From Harriotta raleighana (lineage: Eukaryota), in the NCBI GenBank assembly GCA_050575255.1, contig JBNZDD010013721.1, positions 10,000,983 to 10,064,982 on the forward strand: a stretch of DNA of 64,000 nt. The letters run 5' to 3'. The notes beneath the pieces were generated by a model that was not told the origin of the DNA, ran no database searches, and worked only from the letters and a program-made list of their open reading frames with translations. A program made the position numbers and the translations under genes. Below, piece by piece: positions 53,871 through 54,536 of the stretch (its first letter is position 1; every line of letters begins with the position of its first letter).

Positions 53871-54536
53871 ATTTGCACTTTAGAGTGTGAAGGGGTGGAA
53901 CTGTCCGCCAGAGAGTGGGAAAAATGTGTGAAAGCTCTTCACGCGTACAAGCTTGACATCATGGGCATCGATGACGAAGCTTTCACTGCCCCAAACGCTG
54001 AAGAAAAGGAAGGGGAGATTGAGGAGGCGCTGCTTGGAAAACACTACAGTAATCGTTTGAAGCCCTATGAGAACTTCCTGAAGAAGCTGGACAAGAGTGG
54101 CTTCTATGCCAATGCACTGGCTCAGCACGATGCTAACGACAAACGAGAGGGAACCCTCCAAAAGTACTGGGAGTATCTGAAAGCTTTGGGAGAAAGAGAT
54201 GTCCCCACGTTGGAAAAAGGCTTGCGGGAACTTACTGACGCCACGGAGAGCCTGTCAGGAGAAAATGGTGACAGCCCCGAAGAGGCAAAGCGCTACGCAG
54301 GGTTCTTCACGAAAGGCCTCGGCTACAAGAGAACCACAGAGCCGGGCGATGGGGAAAATCAGGACGTGGAGGAACTTCAAAAGAGATACGGAGGATTCAT
54401 GCGAAGAGTCGGCAGGCCACGGTTCAAATGGGACAACCAAAAGAGGTACGGTGGCTTTCTGAGGCGTCATTTCAGAGTGTCAGTCAGATCAGACGACGAT
54501 GCCAATTCCTACTCTGAAGAGGTTTCCGACCTATAG
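53871..54536 (+). CDS. PDYN: Prodynorphin coding exon 2 (neoendorphin-slot peptide, dynorphin A, dynorphin B/leumorphin); total protein 262 aa
   Basis: Acceptor ttcctcag ending 53870. ICTLECEG...W..C completes the six-Cys motif. Contains KR-YGGFMRRVGRPRFKWDNQ-KR-YGGFLRRHFRVSV-R-SDDD..., with a 29-aa leumorphin-length C-terminus. Adjacent to STK35 as in other vertebrates. Confidence 0.97.
   Translation: MCTLECEGVELSAREWEKCVKALHAYKLDIMGIDDEAFTAPNAEEKEGEIEEALLGKHYSNRLKPYENFLKKLDKSGFYANALAQHDANDKREGTLQKYWEYLKALGERDVPTLEKGLRELTDATESLSGENGDSPEEAKRYAGFFTKGLGYKRTTEPGDGENQDVEELQKRYGGFMRRVGRPRFKWDNQKRYGGFLRRHFRVSVRSDDDANSYSEEVSDL

Follow-up and report, generated by a model that had tools for sequence, protein, structure and literature searches.

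The neoendorphin slot of prodynorphin is probably fading in the chimaera Harriotta raleighana

The prodynorphin gene (PDYN) of Harriotta raleighana encodes, in the slot that holds alpha-neoendorphin in sharks and rays, the peptide YAGFFTKGLGY. How an opioid slot with such a core is to be understood is the question raised by this locus. The original prediction, made from the window (the whole stretch of 64,000 nucleotides analysed here), named decay and a retained ligand as the two alternatives, and these proved to be the right options. Our analysis favours the former. Selection on the neoendorphin slot, the third opioid slot of the precursor, is probably relaxed, and a peptide predicted to be weak, all-L and devoid of kappa activity is probably still excised from it.

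The window carries an intact holocephalan PDYN (proenkephalin-B), the exon 2 of which aligns with that of Callorhinchus milii at 79% identity. Residues 130–221 of this exon have Callorhinchus milii proenkephalin-B as top match (86%), followed by sharks and rays, in the best 120 of 815 matches of a protein search. The architecture is that of PDYN: a signal peptide and six-cysteine N-terminal region, with one coding intron between the parts, and dynorphin A and dynorphin B in tandem at the C terminus. The best matches are PDYN proteins, the paralogues PENK, PNOC and POMC lying elsewhere in the genome. On exon 2 the Pfam PF01160 match scores 21.9 bits, under the curated cut-off of 23.5 bits, because the query, exon 2, is only half of the domain. 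Alignment to named proenkephalin-B/prodynorphin proteins places YAGFFTKGLGY in the third (neoendorphin) slot, which confirms both the gene and the slot originally proposed. Coordinates are collected in Table 1.

Several other features are present in the window. A near-perfect tandem duplication of ~155 bases (52736–53050), real or an assembly duplicate, lies in the PDYN intron 22 bases past the donor. LINE-type reverse-transcriptase frame fragments, presumably CR1/L2-like, occur at 243–677, 5635–6069, 9040–9486, 53366–53725 and 60421–60840, one of them within the PDYN intron. Upstream of PDYN is a long kinase ORF on the reverse strand (26574–28103), a Ser/Thr kinase by PDB search, which we take to be possibly STK35, the usual PDYN neighbour. 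A short reverse-strand frame at ~61370–61450 has the look of a UPF1/DNA2-type helicase motif VI and is possibly an exon of a HELZ2-like gene.

Table 1. Features of PDYN in the window
Feature	Position	Strand	Basis or comparison
PDYN coding exon 1 (signal peptide and first cysteines)	52591..52713	+	Translation matches N terminus of Callorhinchus proenkephalin-B
GT donor of PDYN coding exon 1	52714	+	Read from sequence
AG acceptor of PDYN coding exon 2	53869-53870	+	Read from sequence
PDYN coding exon 2, 221 aa and TAG	53871..54536	+	Open frame; 79% identity to Callorhinchus proenkephalin-B
Relic opioid slot 1, KPYENFLKK	54060..54086	+	Alignment; KRYGGFMKK in most sharks and rays
Relic opioid slot 2, QKYWEYLKA	54159..54185	+	Alignment
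Upstream KR cleavage site of neoendorphin slot	54288..54293	+	Callorhinchus has ER
Neoendorphin-slot peptide YAGFFTKGLGY, 11 aa	54294..54326	+	Translation, reads; 10 aa in other chondrichthyans
GCA, Ala2 replacing Gly2	54297..54299	+	No listed difference in X1–X4 contigs
TTC TTC, tandem Phe codons, probable one-codon insertion	54303..54308	+	Gap column in 23/23 other chondrichthyan rows
ACG, Thr replacing ancestral Met5	54309..54311	+	Common to Callorhinchus; one transition from ATG
CTC, Leu	54318..54320	+	Phe or Tyr in 22/22 elasmobranch species; Phe in Callorhinchus
Downstream KR cleavage site of neoendorphin slot	54327..54332	+	Translation, alignment
Dynorphin A-type peptide, 18 aa	54387..54440	+	Identical to Callorhinchus
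Dynorphin B-type peptide	54447..54485	+	Identical to Callorhinchus
AATAAA, candidate polyadenylation signal	54841..54846	+	Sequence motif

Positions 54288–54332 read AAG CGC TAC GCA GGG TTC TTC ACG AAA GGC CTC GGC TAC AAG AGA, which translates in the open frame of coding exon 2 to KR-YAGFFTKGLGY-KR, in agreement with the predicted 11-mer between intact KR sites. Seven runs were compared with the window, X1–X4 as contigs and X5–X7 as raw reads. Contigs of all four Logan runs X1–X4 span the slot codons, the predicted GCA among them, without a gap or listed difference; neither other letters nor gaps are recorded for the pieces of X3 and X4, and no slot variants were seen in X1–X4. These runs are four samples at depths of 4.2–6.9, and the assembly may derive from one of them. 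Raw-read coverage is low at the slot bin (X5, ~2.6, with a listing threshold of 3 reads; X6, 0.6; X7, none). It is barely conceivable that an error of sequencing or assembly masks a Gly codon and created the additional Phe codon: raw-read depth at the site is only ~0–3 reads, and the contig samples share one study, but all four match the window over the slot with no gaps, and the same contigs reveal a variant at 54195, so that differences are detectable. A sequencing error at the slot is thus very unlikely. The variant itself, A>G, is found in contigs of X1, X2 and X3 and is absent from X4 and from the single X5 read. It turns a nearly invariant Arg, in the G-E-R-D motif behind dead slot 2, into Gly. 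A possible monobasic site would thus appear to be segregating for loss, as would fit a relaxed constraint on the precursor's front half.

The DNA pattern KR-Y-[GA]-G-F has 30 matches in the genome and 22 in a reversed control. Since the pattern is common by chance, the case for YAGFFTKGLGY rests on gene position and not on the motif. Twenty of the 30 matches were translated, all but two of the Ala-type matches among them; the Ala-type matches outside PDYN lie in short frames (7–84 aa) without precursor features, and a second YAGF precursor was rejected among them. C-terminal amidation of the peptide was likewise rejected, its end being Tyr-KR rather than Gly-KR.

We aligned exon 2 of the window with Callorhinchus and with one sequence each of 22 named elasmobranch species, setting aside two duplicate records, four unnamed skate proteins and two further Callorhinchus records. 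In elasmobranchs the slot is typically KR-YGGFMKGFGY-KR; in Callorhinchus it is ER-YGGFTKGFGY-KR, with ER replacing KR in all three Callorhinchus records. The Harriotta peptide resembles alpha-neoendorphin in occupying the third slot, between dibasic sites, but has YAGFF where alpha-neoendorphin has the YGGF(L/M) message, and Thr6, with Lys at position 7, where alpha-neoendorphin has a basic residue right after the pentapeptide core. It also exceeds by one residue the slot of each of the 23 other chondrichthyan species in the alignment; the original prediction read the residues of the core correctly but missed this excess length. Four differences separate the Harriotta slot from the shark form: Met5>Thr, Gly2>Ala, an extra Phe codon and Phe>Leu. 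In the simplest history, Met5>Thr would have arisen on the holocephalan stem and the upstream Lys would have been lost in Callorhinchus, while Gly2>Ala, duplication of the TTC codon and Phe>Leu would be three events in the Harriotta lineage. Taking Ala as the inserted residue, after Tyr1, would instead demand Gly>Phe, which takes two base changes; tandem TTC TTC with a one-base Gly>Ala is preferred, and this alternative alignment was therefore rejected. On the preferred history 'Phe5' is an insertion, not a substitution of Met, and the basic residue moves from position 6 to position 7. Both upstream opioid slots are dead in both holocephalans, and dynorphin A and B are unchanged between the two.

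Ala2 has no counterpart in the wider set of precursors. Among 138 PDYN proteins listed (including the best 120 of 815 matches, with one PENK left out and some species repeated), the neoendorphin slot has Gly2 in 115, Glu2 in 1, no core in 22 (19 named birds and 3 unnamed) and Ala2 in 0. The Glu2 case is YEGFL in one paddlefish copy (Polyodon spathula, P0101). Across the 211 precursor proteins tallied from the matches listed, the sole dibasic-flanked YAGF or Ala2 core is that of Harriotta. The Narcine slot reads EH-NGGFR, all three front slots being lost in Narcine bancroftii (P0015), and KH replaces KR at the slot in 4 of the 22 other elasmobranchs. YGGFF is natural in two osteoglossomorph fishes among the PDYN proteins listed. 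In dynorphin B of a white shark record (Carcharodon, P0007), residue 5 is Ser. The best 120 of 815 matches of the region search contained no second holocephalan prodynorphin besides Callorhinchus, the shorter proteins yielded no candidate, none of 51 candidates scored with a spacer-region query, and 75 matches from a 50%-cluster protein library held no second Ala2 core. No description of YAGFFTKGLGY was found in the literature covered, which took in neither most subscription journals nor the supplementary alignments of PMC10280075 and PMC2865548.

The rate of change of the slot is that of the spacers. Between Harriotta and Callorhinchus, 4 of 15 slot columns differ (27%) and 35 of 132 spacer columns (27%), with 3/9 and 3/9 in the dead slots, 1/18 in the cysteine block and 0/37 in dynorphin A+B; Fisher P is 1.0 for slot versus spacers and 0.005 for slot versus dynorphin A+B, from small counts limited to two holocephalans and 15 slot columns. 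In elasmobranchs the slot is constrained, since across 22 species the mean mismatch is 5.5% in the slot versus 25.5% in the spacers. At that level of constraint 0.85 slot differences are expected and 4 were observed (P = 0.011). A parsimony count, which uses a species tree from general knowledge and in which gap columns inflate the spacer counts, suggests a borderline excess of slot change in holocephalans (P = 0.066 with Narcine, 0.014 without Narcine and 0.20 with the stem branch); Narcine's own slot is decayed. Divergence at the spacer rate (tree-based P = 0.014–0.20) is what relic cores show, but Harriotta keeps Tyr1, Phe4 and both cleavage sites, the upstream KR being lost in Callorhinchus. 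A spacer-like slot rate also fits positive selection, and rate alone cannot separate this from relaxed selection.

These comparisons alter two arguments of the original prediction. It had held that free divergence of the slot in related species would count against it, and this is largely what is seen: the slot is spacer-like against Callorhinchus, which lost KR and Met5. It had also taken the retention of Tyr1, Gly3, Phe4 and the KR sites to favour function. At the spacer rate, however, the probability that K, R, Tyr1, Gly3, Phe4, K and R all persist along the Harriotta branch is 0.20–0.51, and retention of these seven residues is therefore no evidence of function.

The likely pharmacology of the peptide can be gauged from a scan of adrenorphin in which arrestin recruitment to human receptors was measured and for which EC50 values are given in Supplementary Table 4 of PMC7305236. 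The parent has EC50 values of 101, 323 and 65.6 nM at mu, delta and kappa, respectively. L-Ala2 abolishes kappa activity and weakens mu and delta 7–11-fold (1094 and 2317 nM), and Ser2 and Arg2 leave no mu, delta or kappa activity. ACKR3 binding is also weaker with L-Ala2 (611 versus 109). Values for Phe5 are 363, 1313 and 194 nM (mu, delta, kappa), those for Ala5 >10,000, >10,000 and 656 nM, and those for Gln5 5000, >10,000 and 283 nM; with Ala, Gln, Asn or Lys at position 5, mu values are 5000 nM or worse. Ala6 gives 35.4, 147 and 2238 nM, so that R6A raises mu potency ~3-fold and loss of basic residue 6 lowers kappa potency 34-fold. If single-change effects are independent, YAGFFTKGLGY would be ~14-fold (mu) and ~13-fold (delta) weaker than adrenorphin and kappa-inactive, an estimate drawn from a different scaffold, human receptors, an arrestin assay and rows without Thr5 or Thr6.

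Four opioid-receptor genes are present in the genome, with open exon 2 and exon 3 frames and the TM3 Asp motif; the kappa and mu receptors were confirmed against solved structures and the other two assigned by eye. Receptor loss as the cause of slot decay was rejected on the strength of these open frames. In exon 3 of the kappa receptor (L035:1338–1862, reverse strand; G000:C13722), Lys takes the place of human Glu at the top of TM6, and TM7 has Ser-Val versus human Cys-Ile, presumably positions 6.58, 7.38 and 7.39. The human TM6 Glu is usually credited with binding basic address residues. Because TM6 and TM7 differ from human, human pharmacology may not transfer exactly.

PENK, PNOC-like and POMC loci, so named from their peptide motifs, were found by genome search on other contigs with intact YGGFM cores. 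PENK encodes the octapeptide YGGFMRGF, a near twin of shark neoendorphin. In the PNOC-like gene (L003:1477–2142, reverse strand; G000:C13560) the nociceptin-type peptide begins YGGFM and has extra residues before NQ-KR, which make it longer than its counterparts in the relatives compared, and the next slot has YSKL versus FSEF.

The fading of the slot could have proceeded as follows. Met5 would have become Thr in early holocephalans and constraint on the slot would then have eased, since dynorphin A and B would cover kappa and intact PENK and POMC would cover mu and delta; with PENK supplying Met-enkephalins, YGGFMRGF included, the neoendorphin repeat would be redundant. Afterwards the Harriotta and Callorhinchus lineages would have damaged the slot differently. 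Given the KR sites, prohormone convertases would be predicted to excise the 11-mer, provided that the gene is expressed. That the slot is dispensable elsewhere is indicated by Narcine, the KH elasmobranchs, the 22 of 138 coreless PDYN proteins and the paddlefish YEGFL among the matches listed.

Against decay speak the survival of all seven key residues, both KR sites included, the inserted Phe, which restores a hydrophobic residue 5 at a cost of only 3–4-fold for Phe5 (PMC7305236, Supplementary Table 4), the natural occurrence of YGGFF in osteoglossomorphs and the lack of slot variants in four samples. The peptide may instead be a retained all-L ligand of changed selectivity, mu/delta-leaning or ACKR3-binding, released together with the dynorphins; duplication of Phe would have repaired position 5 after Met5>Thr, and Ala2 and Thr6 would have removed kappa activity. 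We consider this possible, though we would advance it only tentatively. Intact KR sites, Tyr1, Gly3 and Phe4 fit such a ligand, Callorhinchus having lost one KR, as do the tolerance of Phe5, the gain in mu potency with R6A and the micromolar mu, delta and ACKR3 activity kept by Ala2, the mildest of three position-2 changes in the same scan. Human data may moreover mislead, given the differences in TM6 and TM7 of this genome's kappa receptor. Yet the slot changes at the spacer rate, its seven residues have a 20–51% probability of surviving by chance, and a peptide with the estimated loss of potency at mu (~14-fold) and delta (13-fold) would be outcompeted by intact PENK and POMC peptides.

A more specific form of retention, raised in the original prediction, is that YAGFFTKGLGY is a substrate of position-2 L-to-D isomerisation and yields a potent, peptidase-resistant Tyr-D-Ala-Gly-Phe-Phe, like DADLE or DAMGO. 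We found no positive evidence for this idea and regard it as highly improbable; its fuller version, in which the chimaera slot is an isomerase-made D-Ala2 neuropeptide with a switch from kappa to mu/delta and a Phe duplication repairing position 5, is equally hard to credit. D-Ala2 does stabilise and strengthen enkephalins (PMC9496382, PMC11013236), and position 2 is the site in all vertebrate D-residue peptides as of 2011 according to the parts of PMC3325411 drawn on here. The same source describes a Bombina isomerase that acts on residue 2, accepts a Tyr-Met-Phe chimera and has Tyr1 and Gly3 in its broad search consensus, with which Tyr-Xaa-Gly is compatible. Isomerase activity has been reported from rat and cow tissues, highest in lung, enkephalin going unmentioned in the portion of that report covered (PMC11277431). 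The genome contains two divergent IgGFc-binding-domain (PF17517) exons (L006 and L007; G000:C11647 and C13322), of a family related to the frog enzyme, but these do not discriminate because the family is present in several vertebrates (PMC3325411); the domains are vertebrate-wide and their presence does not demonstrate isomerase activity. Moreover, conversion by the frog enzyme falls to 1% of its standard rate with a Tyr1 substrate and to 22% with an Ala2 substrate (PMC3325411). As in dermorphin- and deltorphin-type peptides, an L-residue codon (GCA) follows Tyr1, but all frog D-Ala2 opioids tabulated have Phe3 (PMC11013236, Table 7) and Harriotta has Gly3. Skin secretion and venom are where the vertebrate examples in the sources covered were obtained, and none of these examples derives from a classical opioid precursor. 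Strong constraint would be expected on a potent new agonist, yet the conserved aromatic became Leu, and one base change suffices to turn GGA or GGN into GCN, an ordinary route of drift.

If the slot is fading, as we think probable, holocephalan prodynorphin offers a snapshot of peptide-repeat loss, with two dead slots and a third fading in two ways. The precursor would be converging on one with dynorphin A and B only, as birds apparently did, which is of modest interest for the evolution of the opioid system. D-Ala2 in tissue, if true, would mean L-to-D isomerisation of a classical vertebrate neuropeptide precursor, a question raised by the mammalian-tissue activity described in PMC11277431, but its prior is low.

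Among the closest known counterparts of the Harriotta peptide is the elasmobranch alpha-neoendorphin slot (for example, Heptranchias XP_067856917.1), which it resembles in gene, slot, flanks, Tyr1, Gly3, Phe4 and the K-G-x-G-Y tail. With 11 residues against 10 in the elasmobranch slot, the Harriotta peptide differs in its Ala2, its additional Phe, Thr replacing Met and Leu replacing Phe/Tyr. In Heterodontus portusjacksoni (ADO84690.1) the slot carries KH. Callorhinchus milii (XP_007909909.1), the nearest relative found (79%), has the same Thr for Met5, two dead upstream slots and dynorphin A and B as Harriotta. Callorhinchus, however, has kept Gly2 and the normal length and lost the upstream dibasic site, whereas Harriotta has kept KR and altered the core.

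The precursors of frog dermorphins and deltorphins are not known to be related to PDYN. Their peptides start Tyr1-Ala2 from an L-Ala codon, as in Harriotta (PMC3325411), but have Phe3 and come from skin secretion, whereas the Harriotta peptide has Gly3. Relic opioid cores are a known pattern in PDYN (PMC2865548, section 13), and one to two degenerate motifs have been counted in chondrichthyan PDYN (PMC10280075). In the portions of these two sources covered, the mammalian first and second cores and the teleost second core likewise show one repeat decaying with the others fixed. Harriotta differs from these known relic cores in that the apparent decay affects the neoendorphin slot and has spared both cleavage sites; cases comparable to its decay are those of Narcine, the paddlefish copy with YEGFL and the birds.
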